Shown here: in pieces, positions 5,960 to 64,000 of the stretch
How the letters are laid out: every line of letters begins with the position of its first letter
How positions within the stretch are numbered: the stretch's first letter is position 1
Notes under the pieces: model-generated
The model's database searches: none
Seen by the model: the letters and a program-made list of their open reading frames with translations, nothing else
What the model was told of the DNA's origin: nothing
From: Syntrophaceae bacterium
GTDB lineage: Bacteria > Desulfobacterota > Syntrophia > Syntrophales > UBA5619
Assembly (NCBI GenBank): GCA_003141195.1
Contig: PLLC01000087.1
Location: 2,875-66,874, forward strand
DNA: 64,000 nt
Reading direction: 5' to 3'
Translations under genes and position numbers: made by a program

Positions 5960-7456
5960 CTATATCGTAATGCCCTGTTTGAAAATTCCAATCTCATAAT
6001 ACTTGTTCACTTCATTGCGGGCATGGTACTCTCCGTTGACCGTCCGTAAGATCTTCTCATACAGAGAGACTGCGGTTTCCTTGATGTCGCTCCCCTCGAG
6101 CAGAACGCCGGCGTTGAAGTCTATCCAATGCTTCTTCTGCTCATAGAGTGCCGTATTGGAAGAAATCCGGAAGGTTGGAGCGGCAAATCCACCGGGCGTA
6201 CCGCGTCCCGTGGTAAATACGATAAGATTACACCCTGCGGCGATCTGCGACGTGACCCCGATGAAATCGTTACCCGCGCTGCTCAGCAATACCAACCCGG
6301 GCTTGCGATACCGTTCGCCGGAAAGCAACACGTCGGTCACGACGGCTGTGCCGCCTTTTTGTATGCATCCCAACGATTTTTCTTCCAGCGTCGTCAGACC
6401 TCCCGCTTGGTTGCCCTGAGTCAAGTTGCCGATTGCCGATTCACCATGGCTTTCAAAATAGGCCTTGTAGTCGTTGATCATCCCTACGATTGCGTTGTAG
6501 ATCTTTTCATCTTGGGCACGGTTCATCAGAAACTGTTCCGCACCGAACATCTCAGGAACCTCTGTCATGATCACACTGCCGCTCTGGCGGATGATCATAC
6601 TGCTCATCTCACCCACCAGAGGATTCGCAGTAATCCCTGACAAGCCGTCAGACCCTCCGCAGTTGACCCCTACAACCAGCTTTGAAAACGGAACCGGCGT
6701 GCGGCGGAATGCGTTCACATATTCGTAGATCTCACTGCAGCGCTTAAGCCCCTCTTCAATCTCGTCTCCCACCTCCTGCATGATGAGGATCTTGACGGCA
6801 TCGGGGTCCACATCCCCGAGAATCGGCTTGAAAACCGAAGGAGCATTGACTTCACAACCAAGGCTCAGGAAAAGAGTCCCGCCGGCATTTGGATTGCGTG
6901 CCAGACCGGCCAGGATCTTTTGCATGTTCAGCAGATCATCCCCCGTTTGGCAACAACCATAGGCGTGAGGCAGCACGATGAAGCCATCGAAATGATCTGA
7001 TACGGGGAAAAGCGCGTTGGCCTGGGCCGCGATCTTCTGCGCTGAAGCATTCGCACACTGCACCGTGGGGATGACAAAGATGTAGTTTCTTATCCCTGCC
7101 TGGTTGTCTTTGCGCAAATAGCCTTGGAAAACCTTCTCTTCCTCCTCCCCTATCTTCGCTCCTTCCAGTCTGGGCTCGTACTGGTACGACAATATCCCTT
7201 CCAGTTCGGTGCGGACATTATGCGTGTGTACCCATTGGCCCTGTTGGATATCTTTTGTCGCAACGCCGAAGGGGCAACCGTATTTCAGCACCCTGGTTCC
7301 GGCTGCGATGTTTTCAACAGCCATCTTGTGGCACGGAGGGATGTCGTCAAGAACCAATATCTCCTGTCCGGCAACCTTGACGGTCTGTCCCTTGTGTAAC
7401 CCTATCGGTGCAACAACGACCAGGTCCCTTTCACTGATCCGAATCACGTCCATCAA
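5960..7456 (-). CDS. UxaA/GarD-family (altronate/galactarate-type) dehydratase with SAF N-terminal domain, copy 1
   Basis: 498 aa. Has an N-terminal SAF-like beta-clip (HKMAVENIAAG...VHTHNV) and a C-terminal TTGRGTPGG motif typical of the family. Confidence 0.8.
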   Translation of the reverse strand: MMDVIRISERDLVVVAPIGLHKGQTVKVAGQEILVLDDIPPCHKMAVENIAAGTRVLKYGCPFGVATKDIQQGQWVHTHNVRTELEGILSYQYEPRLEGAKIGEEEEKVFQGYLRKDNQAGIRNYIFVIPTVQCANASAQKIAAQANALFPVSDHFDGFIVLPHAYGCCQTGDDLLNMQKILAGLARNPNAGGTLFLSLGCEVNAPSVFKPILGDVDPDAVKILIMQEVGDEIEEGLKRCSEIYEYVNAFRRTPVPFSKLVVGVNCGGSDGLSGITANPLVGEMSSMIIRQSGSVIMTEVPEMFGAEQFLMNRAQDEKIYNAIVGMINDYKAYFESHGESAIGNLTQGNQAGGLTTLEEKSLGCIQKGGTAVVTDVLLSGERYRKPGLVLLSSAGNDFIGVTSQIAAGCNLIVFTTGRGTPGGFAAPTFRISSNTALYEQKKHWIDFNAGVLLEGSDIKETAVSLYEKILRTVNGEYHARNEVNKYYEIGIFKQGITI

Positions 7457-36173: not shown

Positions 36174-36272
36174 GCTGCTCGTTAGGGGTGTCCTTAAGGG
36201 ACTGAGATGCCGGATTTCCGGTGACCCTTTACCGACCTGATCAGGGTAATGCCTGCGTAGGGAAATGAGCCG
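36174..36272 (+). promoter_or_regulatory. TPP (THI-box) riboswitch
   Basis: GGGGTG...CTGAGA...ACCCTTTACCGACCTGATCAGGGTAATGCCTGCGTAGGGAA matches the conserved TPP aptamer core. Confidence 0.85.
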
Positions 36273-36288
36273 AATGTGCAACGCGCAT

Positions 36289-36328: not shown

Positions 36329-36345
36329 GAAAGGAGATGGATGAG

Positions 36346-37638
36346 ATGACACAACTGGATGCGGCCAAAGCGGGGGAAATAACGCCGGAAATGGTTCAGG
36401 CGGCAAAACATGACGGCGTGGAACCGGAGGAAATCCGCCGGAAACTGGCGGCAGGCTCCGTGGTGATTCCGAAAAACAGGTTACGAGCCTTTGAAGTTAG
36501 GGCGATCGGCCTGGGGCTCTCGACCAAAATCAACGCCAACATCGGGACCTCGGCAAGCCATGCCAATCTGCCGGAGGAGATCGAAAAATTGCGTGCGGCC
36601 ATCGAGGCCGGGGCGGACGCCGTCATGGACCTCTCCACGGGAGGCGACATCGATGCCATTCTTGCCGCGATGATCGAACATTCCTCCGTCATGATCGGCA
36701 CGGTGCCCATCTATCGTTCCATCAGCCGCCTGTTCGCCGGCGGCCTCACTTGCGGCGACCTGACCGAGGACGCCATCTTTGCGGACATCGAACACGAGGC
36801 CCGGATGGGCGTCGATTTCATGACCCTCCACTGCGGCATCACGACCCGAACCCTGGCCGTCCTCGAGAAGGGCGACCGCATCATGGGGATGGTCTCCCGC
36901 GGCGGGAGCCTGATGGCGGAATGGATGAAGCTGCACGGGCGCGAAAATCCGCTCTACGAACATTTCGACCGTCTGCTGGAGATCGCCCGTCAATACGATG
37001 TCACCCTCTCCCTGGGCGACGGGTTGCGGCCGGGAACCATCTGCGATGCGGAAGACCGCGCGCAGCTCGCCGAACTGATCGTTCTTGGGGAACTGGTGGA
37101 CCGGTCCCGGAAGGCGGGGGTTCAGGTCATGGTGGAGGGACCGGGCCATGTTCCGCTGAACCGCATCGCCGCGGACATGAGGCTTCAGAAGCGCCTCTGC
37201 AACAACGCGCCCTATTACGTGCTGGGACCGCTGCCCACGGATATCGCCCCGGGCTATGACCACATCGTCGGAGCGATCGGCGGAGCGATCGCGGCCGGCG
37301 CCGGCGCCGATTTTCTCTGCTATGTGACGCCGGCCGAACATCTGGGGCTTCCCACCGTCCCGGATGTCTACGAGGGGGTGATCGCATCGCGCATCGCGGC
37401 GCACATCGGAGACCTGGAGAAGGGGGTCGCCGGCGCGTGGAAGAGGAACGAAAACATGTCTCGGGCCAGGAGACGCTTCGACTGGGAGGCGATGTTCCAA
37501 CTGGCCCTCGATCCGGCGAAGGCGCGAAGGGTCAGATGCCTTACCGAGGACAAGGACCGGGATGTCTGCACCATGTGTGGGGAGCTCTGCGCCATCAAGA
37601 CGTACAACCGATTCTTGGACGGCAATCCTGTCGGTTGA
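36346..37638 (+). CDS. thiC: Phosphomethylpyrimidine synthase ThiC (radical SAM)
   Basis: MTQLDAAKAGEITPEM N-terminus and a C-terminal CTMCGELCAIK cluster motif. ATG 36346 is preferred over 36337 because of RBS spacing. Confidence 0.9.
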   Translation: MTQLDAAKAGEITPEMVQAAKHDGVEPEEIRRKLAAGSVVIPKNRLRAFEVRAIGLGLSTKINANIGTSASHANLPEEIEKLRAAIEAGADAVMDLSTGGDIDAILAAMIEHSSVMIGTVPIYRSISRLFAGGLTCGDLTEDAIFADIEHEARMGVDFMTLHCGITTRTLAVLEKGDRIMGMVSRGGSLMAEWMKLHGRENPLYEHFDRLLEIARQYDVTLSLGDGLRPGTICDAEDRAQLAELIVLGELVDRSRKAGVQVMVEGPGHVPLNRIAADMRLQKRLCNNAPYYVLGPLPTDIAPGYDHIVGAIGGAIAAGAGADFLCYVTPAEHLGLPTVPDVYEGVIASRIAAHIGDLEKGVAGAWKRNENMSRARRRFDWEAMFQLALDPAKARRVRCLTEDKDRDVCTMCGELCAIKTYNRFLDGNPVG

Positions 37639-51752: not shown

Positions 51753-52499
51753 ATGCCGTACGAAGCGATGTTGGCGGAAACCGTAAACGTATGCGGGCAC
51801 AAGGGCGACATGATCGACGCGTACCTGGCGCGTCCCACCGGACCCGGCCCCTACCCGGCGGGGGTGGTGGTGATCCACCACATGCCCGGCTGGGACGAAG
51901 CGACGAAGGAGATCACCCGCAAGTTCGCCCATCATGGCTATGCGGCCATCTCGCCGAATCTGCATTTCCGCGAAGGCAAAGGGACGCCCGAGGAAAACAG
52001 CGCAAGCGTGCGGGCCGCCGGCGGCATGACGGATAATCGCACCATGGGCGATGTGGAAGGAAGCATCCGGTATCTCCGCACCCTGTCGTATCTCAACGGC
52101 AAGGTCGGCATCATCGGCTATTGTTCCGGGGGCCGGCAAGTCTATCTGGCCGCGTGCACGCTGAAAGGGATCGACGCCGCGGTTGACTGCTACGGCGGCG
52201 GTGTCGTGGCGCCCCCGGAGGAACTCGACGCGCGTCAACCAGTAGCCCCGATCGACTATACAAAGGATCTGCGTTGTCCTTTGCTCGGACTCTTCGGCAG
52301 GGAGGACCAGCGCCCCTCGCCCGGGGACGTGGCCAAAACCGAAGAAGAACTCAAGAAGTGGGGAAAGACTTACGAGTTCCACACGTACGACAATGCCGGG
52401 CACGGCTTCTTCTCGGTCGATCGTCCCAGCTATCGGCCGGAGGCTGCGGTCGACGGATGGAACCGGGTCTTTCAATGGTTCGGCAAATACCTCCGCTGA
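51753..52499 (+). CDS. Dienelactone hydrolase-family protein, no signal peptide (paralogue of 49292..50191)
   Basis: 248 aa, about 80 percent identical by eye to the mature part of the Tat-signal paralogue. Confidence 0.75.
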   Translation: MPYEAMLAETVNVCGHKGDMIDAYLARPTGPGPYPAGVVVIHHMPGWDEATKEITRKFAHHGYAAISPNLHFREGKGTPEENSASVRAAGGMTDNRTMGDVEGSIRYLRTLSYLNGKVGIIGYCSGGRQVYLAACTLKGIDAAVDCYGGGVVAPPEELDARQPVAPIDYTKDLRCPLLGLFGREDQRPSPGDVAKTEEELKKWGKTYEFHTYDNAGHGFFSVDRPSYRPEAAVDGWNRVFQWFGKYLR

Positions 52500-52507
52500 T
52501 CCTCAGC

Positions 52508-52616
52508 CGCCAGCAAGCCGTCATCAACCGGCTGTTCGCCTCTCCTCCTTCGGCGGTCTCATCGCTATTGCCCTGGCCCTGGCCGGATCGCTATGGCTTT
52601 CGGCAGCGCTGCATAT
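52508..52616 (+). pseudogene. Two abutting gene fragments: 31 nt of fic and about 78 nt of the MacB-type permease 3' region
   Basis: 52508..52538 matches 49094..49124 at 30 of 31 positions. 52539..52616 aligns with mismatches to 47739..47816. Confidence 0.7.
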
Positions 52617-52874
52617 GATCGGCGTGAAGGTCTTTCCGGTTGCGCGTTCATTTATTATTTATTGAAGTCGAGGTTTTCAGCTGATGTGCTTGTATAGCAG
52701 ATTTCTTTTGGTAATACACGAGTGCGATCAATGAAAAGATGAATTGTGCCGGTCATTGAGGCAACTTCAAATCTTCACTATGAAGTAGGATTCTCTCCCA
52801 ACACTTACGGAAAGAAACCTTCAAAAGAGAAGCTGAGAGGAGAATATTTTGGAAAGAAAATAGAATTTGTGATG

Positions 52875-53633
52875 CTATGATTTTTTCAGCATCATCAACT
52901 CGTCATCCATGTTGTGGCGGATGCAATCCAGCCGAGGCGAAGCCATTAAGAGACTTTCTGAGGCTGTCCGCTTCAGACGAAACGGGAACAGGCTTGTGTT
53001 ATCCAGCAGCTCCGCGAGCCTTGTCGAGCCGTTAGCCTTCGCATGAAGGGATGCTTCAATCAACCATGCAATGAGCTGAGGATCGTCAATGGATACAGGC
53101 AACCCCCGACGATAGACGCCCTTTGTATCGGTTTCCTGCAGCACATCCCAGGCGATAAAAGATCTGAGGACGTAACGAACCCTTCGGAAAACTGATTCCC
53201 GCTCACCGTACTGTTCACAGATACGGCGCTGAACTTGTTCCGCCGTGATGGTTTCCTGAAGCCGCAGCAACCGCCCTACTTGGCCCGATACGGCGCTCCA
53301 AAAGGGATAAGTCGCCATGACCATGGCCCAATGGATCGCCAAGCGCTCCCCGCCCGATTTTATACGCAGCAACTCCAAACCGCTTTCCCTGAATTTGGCA
53401 AGTTCCCTTGGTCCGGATAACCAGACGTTCATCAAAATAGTCACGGTTTTAGAAAGCGAACCCCGGACAGTTGGACTGGAGGTGGGAAAACTGGTTGCTA
53501 AAAATTCCACCATGCTTTGCTTGACTGTGTCCGGAGGATTGCCGGCCAAAGCAAGCTGCGCCACACGTTCCAACCATTCCAAGCGAACGATCCTGTCAAT
53601 GCCAATCTGCTGTATTCGACTGTTGGGTTTCAT
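52875..53633 (-). CDS. BREX-associated helical protein, in the position and size expected for type-3 BrxA
   Basis: 252 aa, ATGA-coupled to the pglZ stop, last gene of the operon. The BrxA assignment rests on position only. Confidence 0.35.
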   Translation of the reverse strand: MKPNSRIQQIGIDRIVRLEWLERVAQLALAGNPPDTVKQSMVEFLATSFPTSSPTVRGSLSKTVTILMNVWLSGPRELAKFRESGLELLRIKSGGERLAIHWAMVMATYPFWSAVSGQVGRLLRLQETITAEQVQRRICEQYGERESVFRRVRYVLRSFIAWDVLQETDTKGVYRRGLPVSIDDPQLIAWLIEASLHAKANGSTRLAELLDNTSLFPFRLKRTASESLLMASPRLDCIRHNMDDELMMLKKS

Positions 53634-55630
53634 CCGGCCTTCCTCTCTATTTGAACAAGAGGAACGATAACTTCCTCTATGGATATCCCGCCGTGACTGA
53701 CGAGACGTTCTTTTTCACGAACGAACGCTTTTCGAGAAGGCGCCAGTAAGGGCAGATAATCGTTCGGCAACCCAACGGGCGGCCATTCCAATGCGGTCGG
53801 AAAACGATCCGCGACCTTTTTCCTCAGAAGCGGATCAGAATAGATGCGAGCCCGTTCGCCGCGCAGGTCGGCAACCGCCCCTTCCGAGGGACGTCCACAA
53901 CCTTCTGCTTCAATGTTTCCGTGATCTGATGTCAGAAAAACCCGGAATCCCCGGTCGAGGAGCAAGTCAAGAAGAGACGCCAGGTAAGACTGTTCCGCCC
54001 ATTGACGCACCTGGTTGTGCATGCCCGCCGTGCCCAGTTCCATGCCGTGCATGATTCTATCGATCTTGTCGATGACCAGCCCCGCCACTCTTATCCTGGG
54101 ATAAGAAAGCAGTTCTTCAAGATGGCTCAGGTTCCCGTCACCAAATCCCTTGGCGTAGGAGATCTCGTTCGGCGTCAGTCCTTGATCTGCCCAAAACTGT
54201 GACCACAAGGCAGATTCCTTCTCGGTCGTCAGGATGCTGTTCGGAAAGAAAATCGGCGGCTTGCCGGCGAAGAGGGCCTGCCGCGAGATTGAGGTGATTG
54301 TCGGAATCCAGGCGAATACAGCGCTCTCACGGAACTGGATTATGGGTCGCTGGGAGGCAATTATTTTACGCACCGCGATCCACTGGTCTAAGGCCAGCCC
54401 GTCAATCACGAGGAGAGCGGCCTTGAATGTCTTGTCATCGACCACCTGGCGCGCCAGGTACCGGGGCAGGTGATGGAGCATGACCGGTGGCGCAGGAGGC
54501 AGGTTGATCAGCCCAGCGAACCGCCGGGTCAACCAGGAAGTGAAGGCATGGTCAACATGGGTCTGAATTTCTTTGATTCCTTGATCAGTTTTGGCATCAG
54601 CGAGCGCCTCATGGGCAATGGCGATCAACTCCGCCCAACCGCGGGCAAACAATAACCAATCTCCATATCGAACATCCTCAGCCGGAATAGCAGTGCGGAT
54701 GCCAGCGAGCAGCTTTTCCAGACGACGCGTTCGATCTCCGGCAGAGTCGGTTCGAACTCCGATGCCGGCCCACGTCTTGGCGATCATTCCCGCCCGTTCG
54801 TGGGGTACCGGGTGCAGAAGACCTTCAAGAAAGAATGTGTCCATATAAACGCGGACATCATGGTGATCAAACGGCAGATCCGGCGGTCCCGGTATCTGGA
54901 AGATGTATCCGGCATATTCTTCTACACCGGTCTGGGTGTCCTGAACCTGCCCACGGTTCAGGAACAATGGCCAGCGTTCCTGCAGGAAGGACAAAAAAGC
55001 TTCCCGATCCGGAACGATTCTTTCCAGAGGCCACCCAGCGAAGCTGTCAGTTTGCCGGAGGATCTGGTTGAAGCGGTTGTCGAGAACCAATGGTATACGC
55101 TGTCCGCGGTAGTGACGGCGCAGGAGTACCCTCAGCAGATCGGATGGCTGCTTGATGAGTTCCACTGCGATCTCAAATACATGCCGAAGGACGAACTCCT
55201 TGGTGGCGTTATCACCGAGCTGCCCGGGCATATGGCGCCGCTGGGCTGTGTACAAGGCGTCAAGATCGCCACGATCCAGGACAGTAATGATGGGATAACT
55301 GAGTGTCGGAAAGATGTCACCAAGATTGAAGAACAGCTTGCGACCCGCCTGAAGCAAATCGAAGGGCAATGTGCTGAGATCGCTGGCCTGGGATCGCAAC
55401 ACCACCACAAGGTCGGTCTGTTCTCCGCAATCCCATCGCGAACGGAACCCGGATTCGTAGGCATAGCGGAAAGCGACAGGGTCCTCAAAAGGAATGAGCT
55501 CGAATCCCCGCTCCCGGATGCCCTCCAGTATTCCTTCCTCCAGCAGCAGCCCATCCGGGTCCGCCACCAGGGTAAGCCGCGAAACCTGCGGGGTGAATTC
55601 CTTGAGAATCTGATCACGCCAGCTACTCAT
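53630..55630 (-). CDS. pglZ: PglZ-domain alkaline-phosphatase-superfamily protein (BREX)
   Basis: LLVIDGLALDQW and VFLTSDHGNIEAEG PglZ signatures. Start at MSSWRDQI (55630) preceded by AGGAGGG. Confidence 0.85.
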   Translation of the reverse strand: MSSWRDQILKEFTPQVSRLTLVADPDGLLLEEGILEGIRERGFELIPFEDPVAFRYAYESGFRSRWDCGEQTDLVVVLRSQASDLSTLPFDLLQAGRKLFFNLGDIFPTLSYPIITVLDRGDLDALYTAQRRHMPGQLGDNATKEFVLRHVFEIAVELIKQPSDLLRVLLRRHYRGQRIPLVLDNRFNQILRQTDSFAGWPLERIVPDREAFLSFLQERWPLFLNRGQVQDTQTGVEEYAGYIFQIPGPPDLPFDHHDVRVYMDTFFLEGLLHPVPHERAGMIAKTWAGIGVRTDSAGDRTRRLEKLLAGIRTAIPAEDVRYGDWLLFARGWAELIAIAHEALADAKTDQGIKEIQTHVDHAFTSWLTRRFAGLINLPPAPPVMLHHLPRYLARQVVDDKTFKAALLVIDGLALDQWIAVRKIIASQRPIIQFRESAVFAWIPTITSISRQALFAGKPPIFFPNSILTTEKESALWSQFWADQGLTPNEISYAKGFGDGNLSHLEELLSYPRIRVAGLVIDKIDRIMHGMELGTAGMHNQVRQWAEQSYLASLLDLLLDRGFRVFLTSDHGNIEAEGCGRPSEGAVADLRGERARIYSDPLLRKKVADRFPTALEWPPVGLPNDYLPLLAPSRKAFVREKERLVSHGGISIEEVIVPLVQIERKAG

Positions 55631-55838
55631 AGCTGCTGCCCTCCTGCCAAGCATTCTTAAGTCCAAGGCAGGCTGCCTCTATGCGGCTGCCCTTCAGGCA
55701 CATGGTATTACGTTTGCACCATGGCAGACAAACGCGGCAGATCGTCGCGCCCCAAGGCGTTTGGGCTTCGATGACCTGACAGAGTTGCCCGTGGTCCGGG
55801 CTGTAGTACCATGAGCCTTGTGCAAAGCCACCCATCAT
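55623..55838 (-). CDS. 71-codon ORF, possible stub of a deleted gene
   Basis: ATGA-coupled to the upstream gene. The first ~35 residues (FAQGSWYYSPDHGQLCQVIEAQTPWGATICRVCLP) look like a small SH3/Tudor-like beta module. The remainder is Cys-rich junk overlapping the pglZ RBS and start. Confidence 0.3.
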   Translation of the reverse strand: MMGGFAQGSWYYSPDHGQLCQVIEAQTPWGATICRVCLPWCKRNTMCLKGSRIEAACLGLKNAWQEGSSYE

Positions 55839-56920
55839 TTCCGTTTCCTGGCTCCGAAATTATGTCTTTGCTTTTCCCACACGCCCTCGACATCGACCCC
55901 GTTGTTTATGGCACTTTGGAGCCTGTCCAAGGCTGCCTTGCTGTAACCTTTGAATGTTGAAGATTTCCGTCGGAGGACTTTAAAGTAGTCCTGGTCATCC
56001 TGAATCCCCAGCTCAAGCAACAGGGCACTGGTCTTGGGTCCGGACAAGCCGAGCTTCTTGGCGAGATCGTCCCGGCCGAGGTTGTACTTATCCCAAATGT
56101 TGACCTCCTGCTTCACCAAGGTTCCGACGGCAGGTTCACCGTCTTTGGCCACGCGGAAGGCAAGATCAGCATCCTTCTTGATCCGGAGATAGATCGGAAT
56201 GCCTTCGCCTTGGGTATCAAGCTTGAGCTGTGCGATTTCGGGGAGGATGATGGACCATTCGTCTCCCTGCCGTCTTCTGTTGATTGCCTTTCGCAATTCG
56301 CCTTCGGTCACCCGTTCGGCATCCTCGCGAGTCGCCGTGGCCAAGGCGAGAATCGGTCGCAGTCTGGCTGCAGCCTGAATCCCTCGGCGACTTCCAGCCT
56401 GCAGCAGTTCGTCAACCTGACTCAGTTCACTATCGATCAGAACCTTCAGGTCTTTGGGTGGTCGCGACGAGACCGGCAGCACACGTTCAGGGATGCAGTC
56501 AGCAAGCCTCTCCTTGAAGACCCGGCTGAGCAGGTCGTCAAAAAGCGTGACCGCGGCTTGGGCTTGAAGGTAAAGAAGGTCCTCTGAGATGTCCTGGTAA
56601 TAATGAACGGCGGTGTCCCGGTGGGCATCCAAGATGGACAAGGTGGCCCGCTCATCAGCAGTGATCACCTTAATTCCGTTCTGGGCCACCTCCAAACACT
56701 TGTCGAAGCCGAAGGAGTACTTCTCTCCTTTTGCATGAACGGTCCCGGTCCTGTCTTTGATAATCGCCTTCAGCAGCATCTCGAAGGCGTGATGCAGAAG
56801 AATCAAGACGCTCTCGGAACGCCCCTGGTCATGGGGTCTATTGAACAGCTCGATGCCAAGCACCAAGGAGTTGATGGCGCGGTTTTTGAGTTCAGCCACA
56901 TCTCTCTTGGCTTTGGGCAT
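55835..56920 (-). CDS. DUF3644-like protein with C-terminal HTH-like region
   Basis: The N-terminal NRAINSLVLGIELFNRP...HHAFEMLLKA pattern is recalled from DUF3644; not verified. Confidence 0.5.
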   Translation of the reverse strand: MPKAKRDVAELKNRAINSLVLGIELFNRPHDQGRSESVLILLHHAFEMLLKAIIKDRTGTVHAKGEKYSFGFDKCLEVAQNGIKVITADERATLSILDAHRDTAVHYYQDISEDLLYLQAQAAVTLFDDLLSRVFKERLADCIPERVLPVSSRPPKDLKVLIDSELSQVDELLQAGSRRGIQAAARLRPILALATATREDAERVTEGELRKAINRRRQGDEWSIILPEIAQLKLDTQGEGIPIYLRIKKDADLAFRVAKDGEPAVGTLVKQEVNIWDKYNLGRDDLAKKLGLSGPKTSALLLELGIQDDQDYFKVLRRKSSTFKGYSKAALDRLQSAINNGVDVEGVWEKQRHNFGARKRK

Positions 56921-56923
56921 GAA

Positions 56924-59779
56924 TCATTCCTCCCCCGCGCGGGTGAGTGCTTGGTCGTACCACATGAGGAGCTTTGGGTCTTCCTGGAGAACATTCTCCG
57001 GGATCTTCTTAGCTACCTCGATAATGGTGCGGTAACCATCTTCCGATTTATCTTGCCATGCCTTTTTGAAGCCAGCGCGGACGGCCTCGATGCGGAACAC
57101 CTTCAGTCGCTTCTGGCTGGTCGTCCGGTATTCCTCGAACTCCTTGAACAGGGACCTCTCGCGTAGCTTCTCCAGGTCGCCGGCCTTGTTCGGGTCGGGC
57201 ACGTACCAGCGGTCCTTACCCTTGGCGCGGAGGCTCTCGTCGTCCTTGGGCAGGTTGCGCAGCTCCTTGAAGTTGGTGGACAGGTAGCTGTGAATCTGGT
57301 TCGGCACTTCGCCTTTGCCGTCGTAGCGCAGGAAGTTCTGTTCCATCAACTCGGATAGCTCCAGTGGCTTTTCGTACTTCTGCCAACCGCCAAGTTCCTT
57401 AATGAACAGTGGATGAATATCCTGAAATGTTTGTGTCTTGTCTTTGAGTAGTTGGCGCAGCCATGCGATGGCAGTGGATTCGTCAGACACAAACACCGAC
57501 ATTTGCTCCATGCCTCCTGCTGTCAGCTTCTTCTTGTCGTATTCGGCCACCTGGTCGGGCAGGAAATACATGCCATCACGATAAGAAAAGCGCTGAGACA
57601 GCCCTTCCTGGAAAGCCGCGCTGTCCAGCGGCACGGGATAACCTTTGCGGACGAAGTAGGCCACCATCTGGTCATATAGAATGCGGGGGTCGCGCTCGGT
57701 GACAGCAATCAGGTGCGTGCTGGCTCCTCGCTTGACGACGGAGAGGTATTTCAGGTGTGTGCGGACGAAATCCCAAACGCCTTCTTCGGTAGTGGCTTCC
57801 TTTTGGAAACGCTCTTCGAATCCGTCGTTGGGCTTGTAGGCGGAAATGACGAGGTCTTGTTTGACCGAAGTGGTGTTTGTTACAGCATTGAAGCTGCCCT
57901 GTTTCTTATTGAGAGAGGAAACATTGGCTACTATAAAGCCAGCTTCAGTCAGTGCGGTCTGAATACTGTTCCAGACAGAAGCTTTGGTATTGGAAAACTC
58001 CACGGTCATCCAACGACCTGGCTTCAATACACGGTAAGCCTCCTTGAAACATGCCGTCATAAGCTGGCGGTATTCTTTTGCACCTTTACCTTGCGTCTTG
58101 TTTTCGATGGCTTCAGATTTATTGTTTGTCCATACTTTTAGCCAAGATTCCCAGAGTAAGTTGAGTTCTGAGTAATTCAGATTAGAACCAAACGGTGGGT
58201 CAATAAACATGTAGTCCAAGGAGTTGTCATCCATGAACACTAACTGATTGTTGCTTTGAGACGAAACTATTGCCGAATTCGATTCTGGACATATTGATTT
58301 CAGTCCTCTCAAAACGAAATCGATATTCCTCCCTACAGTGAGAACGGGATTCGGCGGTGTAATCAAAGACGCAATGTAAAGCGTTCCCGCCAGGGGGCCG
58401 CCACCTTTTTTATCAGATCTGAATCGTCTTAGTTTAGAGGCGTATGGACTCGCCGCAGTGTGCGTTAGAAGGCATGCACGAGATACTCTCGACGACTCTA
58501 CTTGGTGATAATGATTCCAGATACTTGCCAGTTCATAAAGTGAGTTTTGCGTAAAAAAGTGATGCACATGGGTGATGCCGATGCGTAGCGGTTCACCAGT
58601 TTTATCTCCTTTGGGAATAGTAGTTGTCGGGAACCAATAGGGAATCTCGCCCCTCTCAATCTTTTCAATCAACGCCAAATCAAAGATATCTGGCACCTTT
58701 TCCGCCCGCTTGCCGACCACTGTGTAGTTGATGAGCACAGGCACCTGCTTGGCCTGCCTGATGGTCGCCTTGATAGCGCTGTCGTACTTGGTCACCCAGG
58801 CCCGCTCCATATTCCGCTTGGTCAAATTGGCCGAACAGTGCGGGCAAGGGAATTCGTCTTTTAGGCTTCCCGCTTCCTTATCCACCGCCGTTTCCCAGAA
58901 GACGATCTCCCTCGTACATCCCTGGCAGACAAAGACATCCGACCAGACGGTGAAGTTGATTTTGCACTTGGTCTTGCCATCGCTGTGGAGTGTCTCATAC
59001 ATCCAGCCGCATTCATCCTCGACTTCCTTCAAAATGCGTTTTGCTTCGCGCTCAAATTCACGGACGTCCACCGGCGTGTTGTAGTTGTAAGCGATGAAGG
59101 TGGCGGCTGGCGAAAGGTCATTCAGCACCGCTCGACGCGCGCCGAGTTTCGAGAACGGTTTCCAGACCGTCTTTCCATTTTCATCCGGCTCTTGTTGGGA
59201 GATTGTGCCATCCTTGTCCACCCTATAACCCAAAGACTCAACGACCGTTCTGTCACCGCACAGTTGCGCCGCTACGCCGGTCATACCCGTTCCACAGAAT
59301 CCGTCGAAGACCACATCTCCTGGCTCGGTGTAATGCAGGATGTACCGCATAATGGCCTTGTGCGGCACCTTGGTGTGGTAGGAGTGGGCGTTGTAAATCG
59401 GGTCGTTCTTCCCCTCGCTCACGTCAGCAGCGAAAGGTTCCCGGCTGTAAGGCTTGCTCTGGTCGTAGGGTTTGCCGTAGTGCTTGATGAAATCCGCGAT
59501 GAAGGGATTCGGGCAGGCGGTGTAATACGGCGGATCGGACAGGGCCAGGATGTCCTCGTCCGTGCCGATGGGGAACCCCTCGATCTTGCGGAAGTCTGGG
59601 TCCTTCAGCTTCTCGCTTAGCTTCTCCAGGAAATATTTCCTCCGCTCCTCGTCGTTCGGGAAGGTCATGCCGAGACATTCGACAGGCTGACTTTTTTCTT
59701 CCAGCACATTCTCCTCGTAGGACTTCTCAAAGAAGTCTGATTGAGCTTCGGCAAATAACTTTTCTGAAGGTCTGCTCAT
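56924..59779 (-). CDS. pglX: Large site-specific DNA methyltransferase (N6/N4 class), in the BREX PglX position
   Basis: SAM motif VVFDGFCGTGMTGVAA and catalytic-type FIDPPFG, plus an N-terminal SDPPYY; 951 aa. Confidence 0.85.
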   Translation of the reverse strand: MSRPSEKLFAEAQSDFFEKSYEENVLEEKSQPVECLGMTFPNDEERRKYFLEKLSEKLKDPDFRKIEGFPIGTDEDILALSDPPYYTACPNPFIADFIKHYGKPYDQSKPYSREPFAADVSEGKNDPIYNAHSYHTKVPHKAIMRYILHYTEPGDVVFDGFCGTGMTGVAAQLCGDRTVVESLGYRVDKDGTISQQEPDENGKTVWKPFSKLGARRAVLNDLSPAATFIAYNYNTPVDVREFEREAKRILKEVEDECGWMYETLHSDGKTKCKINFTVWSDVFVCQGCTREIVFWETAVDKEAGSLKDEFPCPHCSANLTKRNMERAWVTKYDSAIKATIRQAKQVPVLINYTVVGKRAEKVPDIFDLALIEKIERGEIPYWFPTTTIPKGDKTGEPLRIGITHVHHFFTQNSLYELASIWNHYHQVESSRVSRACLLTHTAASPYASKLRRFRSDKKGGGPLAGTLYIASLITPPNPVLTVGRNIDFVLRGLKSICPESNSAIVSSQSNNQLVFMDDNSLDYMFIDPPFGSNLNYSELNLLWESWLKVWTNNKSEAIENKTQGKGAKEYRQLMTACFKEAYRVLKPGRWMTVEFSNTKASVWNSIQTALTEAGFIVANVSSLNKKQGSFNAVTNTTSVKQDLVISAYKPNDGFEERFQKEATTEEGVWDFVRTHLKYLSVVKRGASTHLIAVTERDPRILYDQMVAYFVRKGYPVPLDSAAFQEGLSQRFSYRDGMYFLPDQVAEYDKKKLTAGGMEQMSVFVSDESTAIAWLRQLLKDKTQTFQDIHPLFIKELGGWQKYEKPLELSELMEQNFLRYDGKGEVPNQIHSYLSTNFKELRNLPKDDESLRAKGKDRWYVPDPNKAGDLEKLRERSLFKEFEEYRTTSQKRLKVFRIEAVRAGFKKAWQDKSEDGYRTIIEVAKKIPENVLQEDPKLLMWYDQALTRAGEE

Positions 59780-59782
59780 GGT

Positions 59783-60559
59783 TTAGGCCTGCATCACTTC
59801 CTGCAAATAGCGGGTTATCCGATCGCGGTTTGTTCCCAAACTGGAATACTGTTTCTCACAGACGTCGCTGAAGCGAGCCAAAACCTTACGGTTGACCGTT
59901 TCCTGATCTTCAAAAATACCCAGGGAACGGTTGGTCAAGTTCCATTTCTCATACTGGAGCAGTGAGATTGTGGCGTCCCGGATTTTGTCATCATTGGGAA
60001 GGGCAAAAACAAACAAGGGACGAGGCATGCCATTCACGCGACAGTCCACGGTATACATGCCCTGGGGATCGTGGTTCTGGTCCTTCCAGTCGAATATCCG
60101 CCGTTCTTCGGGCACGGCCGCCGCCATCAGTTCCTGGAAATCCTCCAGAAAGGTTGAGCGAACCCGTTCCCTGGTCAGATAAGATACATCGGATATCTTA
60201 AGCAGAGCCTGGATAAACGAAAACAAGGCGTCGCCATACTGCTCATTCTCTATCCTTAAAACCAGCTCACCGTCCTGATCCCCCACCTGAAAGGCAGAGA
60301 GGGCATTATTGATGATCTTCTGACGGTTGCCGCGATGCAGATCCTTCTCGTCGAGGTCATAGGTCAGGTGCATGTAGGTGTGGCCTTCATCGGAAAGCGT
60401 CCACGCTGTCTGATCACGTCGGAGCACGATGGACAGATGGTCGCCATCCTCAAACATGAAGGGGGTGAAGACGCGATAACGGTTCACACCTTCATGCGCC
60501 AAGTTGACCTTGGCGCAAACCCTTTCACGAAATGACTGTTCTATGGATTCGGTCGTCAT
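59783..60559 (-). CDS. DUF1828/DUF1829-like protein
   Basis: 258 aa. Family recalled from overall pattern and size; not verified. ATGA-coupled to the upstream 162-aa ORF. Confidence 0.5.
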
Positions 60560-61044
60560 GATTCGATCTCCTTGAATAAGGACAATTGCGAGTCCTGAAT
60601 GGCGTCAATATGACAATCTTCCATCAGGCAACGGAGTGCAGAAGGAAAATCAGAATAGCGATCCGATGGTTCCGCATAGGCGTCTTCCCGTGTACCCATA
60701 TCCTGATAACGCTCCGTGGCTTGATGTATGTGAAAGTCATAAAATGATATTATCTCTATGATATTGGTATGTTCGTGGCTTTTTCCGTTATAGCGTCGAA
60801 GACGGAATGTCTGGCTCGTATCGGGTGGGCAGAAGGCGAGAATAATTGAAAAATCGAGGTGATTGTAGTTGCTCTGCCGAAAGATCAAACGAAATTCATT
60901 GCCGTCGGCGCCAATAATGTCCAGTTCACGTTCCTTGTGTCCTCTCTTTTCGCGCAACTGGATTTTGGAGCGATAATTTCCCGGCAAAGGTTTGGGTTCA
61001 TTTATCAATCCGTTGATCTCCTGATCCGAAAATCTTGCCGCCAT
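60556..61044 (-). CDS. Hypothetical protein (162 aa), no family recognised
   Basis: Clean ORF, coupled to the next gene. Conserved-looking block [14 protein letters not shown]...[11 protein letters not shown]. Confidence 0.6.
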
Positions 61045-61108
61045 TGTGGTACCTCATTGAAATTATTCTACATAAGCAAAGTTACACTGTAAACATGTTC
61101 CGCTCATC

Positions 61109-61125
61109 GCAATTGCCGCAATTGC
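61109..61125. promoter_or_regulatory. Two tandem GCAATTGC palindromes
   Basis: GCAATTGC at 61109..61116 and 61118..61125, within the 279-bp AT-rich gap upstream (minus strand) of the 162-aa ORF. Confidence 0.3.
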
Positions 61126-61323
61126 AACTTGGGCCTCGACTTGGACCTCTTGGGCTTCATCATGGTCCTGGACTTTGTGGCAGAAAATAGTCATTTATGA
61201 TACCATACTTAGTACTGCGGTTCATAAATTCGGTTACGTATTTTTCGAATCCGCATGCTTAATCATCGCAGGATCGGCTACAAATGGAACGTCACCGTAA
61301 TCACGAAACGCTGTACTTAGTAA

Positions 61324-64000
61324 TTACTCCAGCACAATACGTACCTTGCCGGGCTCTTTACCCTTAATTAGCTGATCCAGGTAGTCTTCGAACCGCTTTC
61401 TCATTTCCGCTGGGGTGACCGGTGAGCCGCCCGTAAGGAGCGCTGATCGCAGGGCATCGGTCTTGACTAAAACCTTGATCAATCCTGTGAGCGCATCCTG
61501 CAGGGCGCTGATGAAGTCTTGGCCTATAACATCTGGAAGGATGCGTTTTTTGATAAAGCCGTCCACTATTTTCCGCTGGTCAGGCTTGAGGAGGGCCAGT
61601 TTCTCCCTGGTCGTAGGGTATTCAAGGTTTGCCAGCAAGGTTTGGGTCCAATCAACCACCAGTTTGTCCAGTTCGCTGTCCAGATTGTCGAGCGTCATGC
61701 CGGCTGGGGTTGTTGCAGACTCGGATGCAGGTTTGTGGCCGCAGTGCTGGCAGACAGGCGCTGCGTTGAGTTCCTGTTCGGTGAGGGCGAAGCAGCTCCT
61801 CAGGCCTGCAAGCCGGTTCTGGAAATCGGTCAGGTGCTGGAGGGGCATGAGATTGATGGTGGAGAGTTTTTGTAATACCTTGAGACGTTCGTCGCCCATG
61901 AGCAGGGCCTTGCGCTTGTCCTCCTTTACGCCCAGCCGCGCCTTGCTGTGGTGGGCAAGGTATATCTGGATATAGGCTTTTTTTAGGTCCGTCAACCGGC
62001 GCTGGGTTTGCTGGCGGAAGGCGGCCGCCCCGCGTTTGTCCGGGTCGCTAATTTGCCCGAGGACTTCATCGCGCACGAACTTCACCTTGTCGAGCCATTC
62101 ATGTCCGGTAGGCAGGACCGCTTCCGCTGTGGAAAGGTACGACGCGACCGTCCCGAGCTCATTGGCCAGTTCCTGCAGGGATTCAATTTCCTTCAGGGAT
62201 TGAAATCCTTCGTGATGGCCCTTTACTTCCGGGGCATCGTAACGGAAATTCTTCAGTTTCCCCGGCGTGGTGTACGCCTGAAGCGATTCGAGGAATGTCT
62301 TGGTTTCTTCCAGTCGGGCTTTCAACTTCTGAACTTCATCCTCGGACAGGAGACTTCGCCCCCAGAAGAACAGGCCATTATGTAAATTTTGCTGGGCGAT
62401 GACAAGCCGGTTGACTGTTTCCGAGACGGCCTTTTGCATTTGCTGAACCGGTGTCTCATCCGCTTGGGTAATCTGTTGAACCATTCCTGGAGGGAGTCCC
62501 AACAGTTCAAAAAGCGCTTTGAGCGCCGGGATATTCCAGTCTTTAGGGCGTTCGACGTGTTTGAATTGTACCAGCTCTTCCACGCCGGTACCGGCCATTT
62601 GCGGTAAGATAGTGGCGTCGAACTTTTTACCGGGAATGGCCAATACAATTTCTCCGGCATAAACCAGCGCGGCCAGTACCACCACCGCCCATTCCGGTTC
62701 CAGTCGCAGCGTTTGCGGCGCCAGATACTCGACCCCGAGAACCTCCTGGAACAGTTCAGACCGATTGACAACTTGGCCAGCACCTTTCTTCTTTGCATTG
62801 TCGAGAATATATCGGGCGTATTTTGACTGATACGGATCAATCCGCTCCCCGTCGAGGAGTCCCAAGGCATCCATAACCGCCGTTGCTTGCTTGGTGCGGT
62901 TCTGGCCGGCAATGGCCCGCAAGGCGTCCTGTGCCGCCTGGGCGCGGTTGGCGCCCGTGATGAGCACCGAAAAGAAGGGGTAATCCGGCGCCTGATCCCG
63001 AAAATGGCTGTCGAGACATATTCCCGCGACGGTATTCACCATATCGCGAAAATTGATCCGCTCATGGGGCGCTATGCCGGACAGCTCGCGGATCGACTTT
63101 CCCTTTGCCCATTCGGTGAGGGGTTTGGTCCGTCCCTGACAGGTGACATCGAAGGCTGTCGTCATGTTCTTCTGGAGCCATTGGACCAGATCCCGCAGAA
63201 AGTTCGACGCCTTGGATTCATATGTGTTTTTGGCATGGCCAGATGCCGTGGAGGCAAGATCGAGGGCCGCCGTATAGCCGCGTAACGCCGTGCGGAAGGT
63301 TTCATCGTCATTTTTCAGGTGAAGGAATAATTCGTCCGGTTTCTTCTCATCTTTGAAGGACGGCGCCTCGAAAGGTTGAAGGAAGTAAAGATAAAAATCG
63401 CGGGGCGGCACTGCCGTGGATCGCTCATTGGGCGCGCCGAAAAAGAGGTACCCAAGGCGTGCGGCCTTCCGTTCCAGCCACTCGATCTCATGCTGCCAGA
63501 TCTTGTAGCCGGTGACATAGGTGTAATCAGTACATTCCATGACCCGCTTCAGGGCTTCATAATAATAGCGATCAAGCTGCGAGGGTTCGAGACTCTCGGT
63601 GCGATTACGAACCTGTGCGTCGTAATCCACGGTTTTATGAACGTCGAGATAGAACTGCCCGCTCAGCCTTCCATTGACGTCCGTCTCTGTTGCCGACAGG
63701 AATTGACCATTGACGGCTTGGCTGATCACTCGTAACGCCGATTCAATTTCTCCGCGCAGATCGTCGGCAGGATCTCCGCCAAGATCGGCTACGTTTGGAT
63801 CAAAGAGGCACAGAGAATCCCTCAATGATTCCGATGTCAGGCCCACAGGCGTTTCAATGCTGCCGACAGTTAGCCGGTGCAGGCTCAGGCCATGGATAAT
63901 CCTTCCGGCGAATTCCTTATTCTTGCCTTTCGGGTAATTGCTGTTGATCAGCCCCTCAAGTTTTGCGCTGCACTCGATGACCTCCCTGATTTCCGGGATG
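61324..64000 (-). CDS. Large BrxC/PglY-position protein (DUF6079-like by recall), 5' end beyond the window
   Basis: The reading frame stays open from 63846 to base 64000 (translated by hand), so more than 890 aa are visible. Its position upstream of the methylase in a PglZ operon supports the call. The N-terminal ATPase part is not in the window. Confidence 0.5.

Follow-up and report, generated by a model that had tools for sequence, protein, structure and literature searches.

A strictly paired DUF6978-like and DUF1828 gene cassette between brxC and pglXI of a type 3 BREX locus, a candidate second-line anti-phage module

In a 64,000-nucleotide stretch of DNA from a Syntrophaceae bacterium (hereafter the window, meaning the whole stretch), two small genes, A and B, lie between brxC and the methyltransferase gene pglXI of a type 3 bacteriophage exclusion (BREX) locus. 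A and B form an obligate pair and are under strong purifying selection. We propose, with moderate confidence, that they constitute an autonomous, horizontally mobile second-line (backup or abortive) anti-phage module which has come to occupy the slot between brxC and pglXI. By the profile matches of B and of relatives of A, the pair appears related to PDC-M24, a two-gene phage defence candidate of PADLOC-DB v2 (CAS_00098, FAM_00129>>FAM_00065; Payne, Hughes, Fineran & Jackson 2024, bioRxiv 10.1101/2024.01.29.577857). The original prediction had described a 162-aa and a 258-aa protein whose genes overlap by ATGA, 3 nt ahead of the methylase gene and preceded by a 279-bp AT-rich gap, and all of these coordinates hold. 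The cassette itself comprises the following features.

60556..61044, minus strand: gene A, open reading frame (ORF) of 162 aa, divergent DUF6978 / PDC-M24A-like
59783..60559, minus strand: gene B, ORF of 258 aa, N-terminal DUF1828, PDC-M24B-like
60556..60559, minus strand: ATGA overlap of the A stop codon (TGA) and the B start codon (ATG); the plus strand reads tcat
61055-61052, minus strand: Shine-Dalgarno sequence of A, GAGG, at proper spacing to the A start
60573-60568, minus strand: Shine-Dalgarno sequence of B, AAGGAG, within the 3' end of A, at proper spacing

The TAA of B ends at 59783 and the ATG of pglXI stands at 59779, which leaves 3 nt between the two genes. On the other side, the 279-nt gap separates the brxC stop (61324) from the ATG of A (61044). 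Its GC content is 42%, against 52-56% in the flanking genes, and that of A itself is 45%.

An obligate gene pair present in many phyla

A was sought in one genome per species, over 185,579 species-representative genomes, and at least 561 of them encode it. These genomes belong to many phyla, and Thermodesulfobacteriota, Planctomycetota, Acidobacteriota, Nitrospirota, Chloroflexota, Spirochaetia and Bacteroidales are among the groups represented. For the pairing and neighbourhood counts, 80 A-bearing genome loci were fetched on A alone. B was found directly downstream of A, on the same strand, in all 80. The spacing is -4 nt in 22 of these loci and +2 or +3 nt in 42, and it does not exceed 13 nt in any locus but one, for which the value obtained (-774) is a calculation artefact. 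The same pairing was seen in metagenome contigs and in phages. Such an association is far beyond chance. Both ORFs are real genes, since A has 2391 homologues and B 4267 at E<=1e-3, with identities to the window pair of 56-94% for A and 60-95% for B across loci from many phyla. The closest relatives, at 93-95% identity, come from metagenome-assembled genomes of Smithella and Syntrophus.

The original prediction placed A in no recognisable family. This is correct as far as direct matches go, as window A had none in Pfam, NCBIfam or PADLOC: nothing was obtained with PF22398 (DUF6978; gathering score 29.6 bits) even at E<=10, nor with the PDC-M24A models at E<=0.1. The relatives of A tell more. 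P0042, a protein 66% identical to A, scores 30.8 bits on DUF6978, above the gathering score, and 54 of 89 diverse A relatives (35-55% identity) match PF22398 and no other family. On the strength of these profile matches, A is a divergent relative within the DUF6978 superfamily and of PDC-M24A, not an orphan. The PDC-M24A models catch just 6-8 of the same 89 relatives. A also matches the phage protein family phrog_27326 at 8e-26. The A family as a whole forms 1195 clusters at 50% identity and consists of single-domain proteins, mostly of about 160 aa. No domain fusion was found in it; the longer proteins among the best 150 representatives show N-terminal extensions only, which are probably start mis-calls.

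In its AlphaFold2 (AF2) model (pLDDT 85.6), A folds as one beta-rich domain, in which a helix at the N-terminus is followed by a beta-sheet of mostly antiparallel strands and by helices at the C-terminus. Nine residues are invariant across divergent relatives (K18, F65, R84, H92, N94, H105, H107, Y113 and A124), and E97, N86, G87, R112 and Q114 are nearly so. With the H-x-N and H-x-H motifs on neighbouring strands, three histidines would come to lie on one face, which suggests a putative metal site. Foldseek found no significant match for this model in the Protein Data Bank (PDB), where the best one, p32, was discarded as a fold match for want of significance (E=0.24, TM 0.29), and no nuclease fold, beta-beta-alpha-metal or other, appeared in that search. 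A reading of H92-x-N94 ... H105-x-H107 as an HNH or His-Me finger was likewise set aside, as it has no structural support and the spacing is atypical. Against BFVD, the model gave a single match, to an uncharacterised siphovirus protein.

The DUF1828-like nature of B, in contrast to the family of A, had been recognised in the original prediction, and the assignment is firm: B scores 96.7 bits (1e-27) on Pfam DUF1828 (PF08861; gathering score 22 bits), residues 32-122 covering the whole domain (1-91 of 91). B also matches the PADLOC models for PDC-M24B (PDLC04539 at 9.6e-21, PDLC04540 at 3.4e-15), over residues 8-145 of 258 only, and phrog_5059 at 8e-30. It is made of the N-terminal DUF1828 domain and an uncharacterised small alpha/beta C-terminal domain. 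Its AF2 model is less confident than that of A (mean pLDDT 73), and Foldseek gave weak matches only. The best whole-model match was the type III secretion chaperone InvB (2fm8_A; prob 0.90, E 0.018, TM 0.40 on target), which in this model appears to fall on the DUF1828 domain. Weak matches of 73-90 columns, to receiver and BcsE REC-like alpha/beta domains, were assigned to the C-domain. Restriction enzymes appeared with a probability of 0.3 or less. A Toprim or PD-(D/E)xK reading of the C-domain was rejected, the acidic residues N189-D191 and E217-E220 being not conserved in the Pseudomonas subfamily. Indeed, B is unlikely to be a metal-dependent nuclease because the acidic clusters of the window clade are not conserved between B subfamilies. 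Both proteins are acidic and soluble, and comparison of A and B with PDB chain sequences, by sequence and profile searches, gave nothing credible.

PDC-M24 owes its nomination to 'guilt-by-embedding', having been seen inside BREX, DISARM or type I restriction-modification (R-M) systems (bioRxiv 10.1101/2024.01.29.577857). It resembles the window pair in its co-directional order, A before B, with a DUF6978-type gene first and a DUF1828 gene second, and in being embedded in BREX and type I R-M systems. However, the window A is missed by every PDC-M24A model and the window B matches over its N-terminal 145 residues only; therefore PADLOC would not call PDC-M24 here. The window clade also differs from PDC-M24 in that it is very conserved, belongs mostly to uncultured anaerobes and soil or sediment phyla, and occurs in type 3 BREX and Hma loci as well. 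Judging from these profiles, we regard the window pair as a divergent, mostly undetected branch of candidate PDC-M24 and not as a model-defined member; it is filed as a divergent relative because the homology of its first gene to PDC-M24A is indirect. The PDC-M24A models of PADLOC-DB v2 (PDLC04536-04538) and Pfam DUF6978 both miss the window A, and automated annotation is expected to miss most cassettes of the clade.

Defence operons, phages and the brxC-pglXI junction

Neighbouring genes were classified by seed-based phmmer searches together with a Pfam count; an alignment-mode PADLOC census was dropped, since redundant models dominated it. Over all 80 loci, and like the window itself, 10 further pairs lie between brxC and pglXI, 6 between hsdS and hsdR of type I R-M systems, and 4 between an SNF2 helicase gene and a DUF1156 methyltransferase gene (Hma). 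When only the 48 loci with at least 3 kb of flank on each side are considered, 18 lie within operons of methylation-based defences (8 type 3 BREX, 6 type I R-M and 4 Hma). The distribution is therefore not random, and a random spread of homologues, which would have spoken against the original prediction, is not what the census gives. Every embedded pair runs in the direction of its host operon. Some 60 of the 80 pairs are solo, with unrelated and mostly housekeeping neighbours, and 70 of the 80 lie outside BREX; the pair therefore needs no fixed partner. No integrase or transposase recurs beside A-B among these loci.

These counts also bear on what had been suggested about the role of the cassette. 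A regulator is not favoured, as the searches revealed no DNA-binding domain and the pair, in some 60 of the 80 loci, is not embedded in a host system that it could regulate. An independent mini-system agrees better with the data: the pair has its own promoter-like leader and occurs solo, in type I R-M and Hma loci and in temperate phages. It remains true that neither gene has an assigned function.

In one set of Hma loci (L081-L090), which carry an A sequence identical to P0042, the backbone is constant and consists of HTH_17, an SNF2/NOV_C helicase, a DUF1156 methyltransferase and DUF499. The slot after A-B is filled either by a GajB-like UvrD helicase gene or by a KAP-NTPase/QatB/QueC/ASCH set. 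There is thus turnover of cargo beside a constant A-B. In another locus (L094:8368-11230), the genes after A-B are one of the UPF0758_N type (RadC-like N-terminal) and one for an 845-aa N6_N4_Mtase/NmeDI_C protein; this is a PF01555-type methyltransferase downstream of A-B outside BREX and Hma.

The original prediction considered the position of the cassette to be empty in described BREX types. Canonical type 3 BREX indeed has no gene there, but the junction takes cargo in practice. In a complementary sample of 80 type 3 BREX loci collected through PglXI, 58 have both the brxC and the pglXI ends. The junction is empty in 26 of these 58, holds a spacer of 200-440 nt in 14, and carries cargo of at least 1.2 kb in 18: Schlafen-like genes in 11, YhcG/PDC-S02 nuclease genes in 4, an AAA_14 ATPase gene in 1, A-B in 1, and others. 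A-B is also present in one truncated locus. A reading of A-B as a core subunit of type 3 BREX was rejected on these numbers, the pair being missing from most type 3 loci. Thus, the brxC-pglXI junction is empty in the canonical scheme and a swap-in slot in practice. The position of A-B is less surprising than first implied because embedding in BREX is documented. A conserved 82-aa ORF is present in at least 7 of the 14 spacers. In L103, L117 (5382-5702), L118, L121, L153, L102 and L149 the junction holds a recurrent spacer of about 321 nt, with 80-100% identity, whose 82-aa ORF reads MSKGRDRTISRRPDGTWENKRNDADKASS...PGNDPNPPKDKEH. This ORF, which we take to resemble a DUF2188-type small protein, may be another small cargo gene of the slot.

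Recent BREX surveys describe 'backup effectors' at swap-in sites (PMC12839542), and the other embedded cargo known in BREX and BREX-related loci includes Schlafen/AlbA_2-wHTH RNases, YhcG/PDC-S02 PD-(D/E)xK nucleases, PARIS and GmrSD/BrxU (PMC12839542; Payne et al. 2024). Like A-B, such cargo uses the slot between brxC and pglXI in the orientation of the host operon, is interchangeable between loci and is also found outside BREX. Unlike A and B, which have no such domains, it shows recognisable nuclease or ATPase domains, several with proven activity.

Comparison of the window with L001, which has an extra PDC-S02 gene upstream, illustrates the modular mobility of the cassette. Nucleotide identity is 89% over the leader, A, B and the first 690 nt of pglXI (window 59091-61131, L001:9914-11955), whereas it is about 72% in brxC and in the remainder of pglXI. 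From this contrast we conclude that the cassette has its own history. One possibility is that it recombines by anchoring in the conserved 5' end of pglXI; another is that the fall in identity marks the variable target-recognition part of PglXI.

The upstream gap contains the leader of the cassette, with these features.

61047..61131, minus strand: cassette leader, about 85 nt, 86-93% identical in L001, L002 and L107
61065..61093, minus strand: sigma-70-like promoter TTTACA-17-TAGAAT, 20 nt upstream of the A ATG, 10/12 consensus
61108..61125, no strand assigned: two perfect palindromes in tandem, GCAATTGC-G-GCAATTGC, directly ahead of the -35 hexamer; conservation in L001 and L002 is only partial
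61132..61323, no strand assigned: distal 190 nt of the gap, AT-rich

The leader is kept in L001, L002 and L107 although the upstream gene varies (brxC or PDC-S02). Within it, L001 and L002 retain TAGAAT and TTTAC, and the sixth base of the first hexamer is changed. The GCAATTGC palindromes could possibly serve as an operator, and A and B have no recognisable DNA-binding domain. The distal 190 nt showed no similarity to any of 160 related loci, no Rfam match and only short unconserved ORFs. The AT-rich gap, which had been taken as part of the setting of the cassette, is the largest intergenic region of the BREX part (the second largest, 168 nt, separates pglZ from the DUF3644 gene), but sequence conservation indicates that only its A-proximal 85 nt belong to the cassette.

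Distant copies of the pair, 34% and 29% identical (A and B) and with the same 4-nt overlap, are present in the Pseudomonas temperate phages 5399, 5371 and phita81A. In phage 5399 (L091, PQ758389.1) the pair lies at 5986-7277, downstream of cI and on the cI strand, with an 84-aa ORF between cI and the pair. Its A protein, 34% identical to the window A (E 2e-22), is detected by PDC-M24A at 1.2e-8 and by DUF6978 at 46.2 bits. Its B protein was found on 316 P. aeruginosa contigs. The position next to cI is that of rexAB in lambda and is classic for genes that are expressed in the lysogen and exclude other phages. The lambda rexA-rexB genes and similar prophage exclusion pairs are, as in phage 5399, two-gene cassettes directly downstream of cI on the repressor strand, and they work as sensor plus effector. 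However, they have no sequence or fold relationship to A-B, and RexB resides in the membrane, in contrast to the acidic, soluble A and B; the likeness is positional only.

Possible mode of action and competing explanations

The regulatory and structural features of the cassette are consistent with the following scenario. The cassette would bring its own promoter and ribosome-binding sites, and translational coupling would set a fixed A:B ratio, probably in the form of a complex. B would be the sensor or regulator, with a possibly chaperone-like, protein-binding N-domain and an alpha/beta C-domain, and may either keep A inactive or recognise a phage cue. A is taken as a metal-dependent effector because it combines an invariant His92/His105/His107 cluster with the lack of a PDB fold match; H92, H105 and H107 would act together with N94, E97, R84 and Y113, and the target would most plausibly be a nucleic acid or a nucleotide. 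Such a module would act independently of BREX and add a layer of immunity when BREX is evaded. The assignment of effector and sensor roles is a guess, because fold and profile searches gave nothing significant, and we hold it with much lower confidence than the proposal of a defence module. A bolder version, to which we give only a small chance, is that DUF6978-DUF1828 pairs are widespread and act against phages by a new mechanism, in which A, a His-cluster metalloenzyme, would be freed or activated by its chaperone-like partner B. The trigger could be some phage protein by which methylation-based immunity is disabled, and the pair would be a PARIS-like guard of BREX, Hma and type I R-M built from unrelated parts.

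Several observations weigh against a defence module. Defence islands hold only a minority of the A-B loci. The identity across phyla, 58-68%, is an unusually high level for such a role, as defence genes typically diversify quickly. No recognisable nuclease, NTPase, pore or NADase fold was found in A or B by fold and PDB profile searches, and the acidic residues of the C-domain of B, together with several histidines of its N-domain, vary between two subfamilies, which speaks against catalysis by B. The promoter is a consensus match, and a single site was found where 2.1 are expected by chance in the region; support for it comes from conservation and not from the scan, because one such site is within chance expectation. 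Finally, the literature on DUF1828, DUF6978 and PDC-M24 consists of incidental mentions only and holds no functional data.

One could imagine that A-B is a toxin-antitoxin (TA)-like addiction module, which stabilises the carrier island, prophage or mobile element and has no direct anti-phage role. Like type II TA pairs, A and B are small genes that overlap and run in one direction, with a promoter of their own and palindromes close by, and their spread is patchy and horizontal over many phyla, including the solo pairs among housekeeping genes; the TA genes PIN and MazE lie near the pair in L094, and prophages carry it. However, searches of Pfam, NCBIfam and PADLOC and with Foldseek found neither an antitoxin-type DNA-binding domain (ribbon-helix-helix, helix-turn-helix or AbrB) nor a known toxin fold, and A and B are acidic, larger than typical type II pairs and conserved far above what is usual for TA systems. 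We consider this explanation unlikely; it overlaps with that of a second-line defence module because many TA systems are abortive-infection defences. A role as cargo of phages or mobile elements without defence function, whether as a lysogeny-associated regulator, an anti-defence factor or a selfish passenger, appears still less probable. A and B do match PHROG families and have homologues in temperate phages, and the low GC content of A relative to its neighbours suggests a foreign origin. Nevertheless, the lack of a recurring integrase or transposase beside the pair argues against such a role, and an anti-defence gene co-oriented within its own target operon is implausible. Moreover, purifying selection on the pair is strong across phyla, as would be expected of a function useful to the host.

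Alternatively, the pair could be an accessory or guard of methylation-based immunity that interacts functionally with the methyltransferase complexes of BREX, Hma or type I R-M, for example by sensing their inhibition through phage anti-restriction proteins such as DNA mimics, as PARIS does, or by tuning methylation. Indeed, A-B repeatedly stands right before a methyltransferase gene of the PF01555 or DUF1156 type (pglXI, HmaB and the NmeDI_C methyltransferase gene of L094), or between hsdS and hsdR, always co-directional. In the window the stop codon of B is 3 nt from the start of pglXI, a distance that makes co-transcription probable, and the N-domain of B in its model may be similar to the fold of a protein-binding chaperone. 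The two systems type 3 BREX and Hma, furthermore, share homologous ATPase, methyltransferase and helicase genes (PMC12839542). On the other side, 30 of the 48 evaluable loci have no BREX, Hma or type I system within 3-10 kb, and the phage copies adjoin cI and not a methyltransferase gene. The same slot accepts unrelated cargo (Schlafen and YhcG genes); therefore a hotspot explains the position of A-B without functional coupling. The chances of a guard function seem to us about as low as those of an addiction module, and we keep to the proposal of a module that acts on its own.

If A-B is a working defence module, it would be a very common layer of immunity, given the number of genomes encoding it and a family of about 1,200 clusters, built from components for which neither fold nor chemistry is known. 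Most cases escape current annotation tools, as the PADLOC models for A detect fewer than 10% of diverse relatives. Should it not be involved in defence, it would still be among the most conserved uncharacterised mobile gene pairs of environmental bacteria. Both proteins are small, soluble and extremely conserved and therefore lend themselves readily to cloning, mutagenesis and structural studies. In addition, the census provides a concrete view of the brxC-pglXI junction as a slot into which second-line effectors are swapped, and it bears on the layering of BREX against phage counter-defence. Embedded BREX cargo as a phenomenon and PDC-M24 as a candidate family are already known. The present analysis adds the strictness with which the genes are paired in hundreds of genomes, their connection to DUF6978 and the census of the type 3 BREX and Hma slots, together with the cI-adjacent phage copies, the lack of a PDB fold match for A and the poor coverage by existing models.

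The BREX locus and other features of the window

The genes that flank A-B make up a type 3 BREX locus and are arranged as follows.

61324..64000, minus strand: brxC (DUF6079), Pfam DUF6079 E=0 over profile positions 409-1238, PADLOC BrxC E=0; its 5' end lies beyond the window
56924..59779, minus strand: pglXI, type 3 BREX methyltransferase of 951 aa, PADLOC PglXI E=0, Pfam N6_N4_Mtase
55835..56920, minus strand: DUF3644 gene (PDC-S19), Pfam DUF3644 1e-15, PADLOC PDC-S19 2e-117
53630-55666, minus strand: pglZ, PADLOC PglZ 3e-302
52875-53633, minus strand: brxA, PADLOC BrxA 9e-92

A terminator scan found no terminator-like site at the B-pglXI junction and none on the coding strand of the 279-nt gap. 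A-B and pglXI are probably co-transcribed, because of the short distance between them. The DUF3644 gene is a second embedded cargo of this locus: it lies between pglXI and pglZ, the usual place of brxHII in type 3 BREX, and the same gene is present in 5 of the 80 PglXI-sampled loci. No helicase was found in the pglXI-to-brxA interval of the window; brxHII was reported in 77% of type 3 loci by a 2026 survey (PMC12839542). The BREX island stops just past brxA (52875), and positions 52500-52874 separate it from a housekeeping-looking ORF of 248 aa (51753-52499, plus strand), which is on the strand opposite to the BREX genes. No tRNA gene was found anywhere in the 64-kb window. Farther away, at 36174-36280 on the plus strand, a thiamine pyrophosphate (TPP) riboswitch (Rfam RF00059, 64.2 bits) precedes the ORF at 36337-37638; it is an ordinary element, unrelated to A-B.

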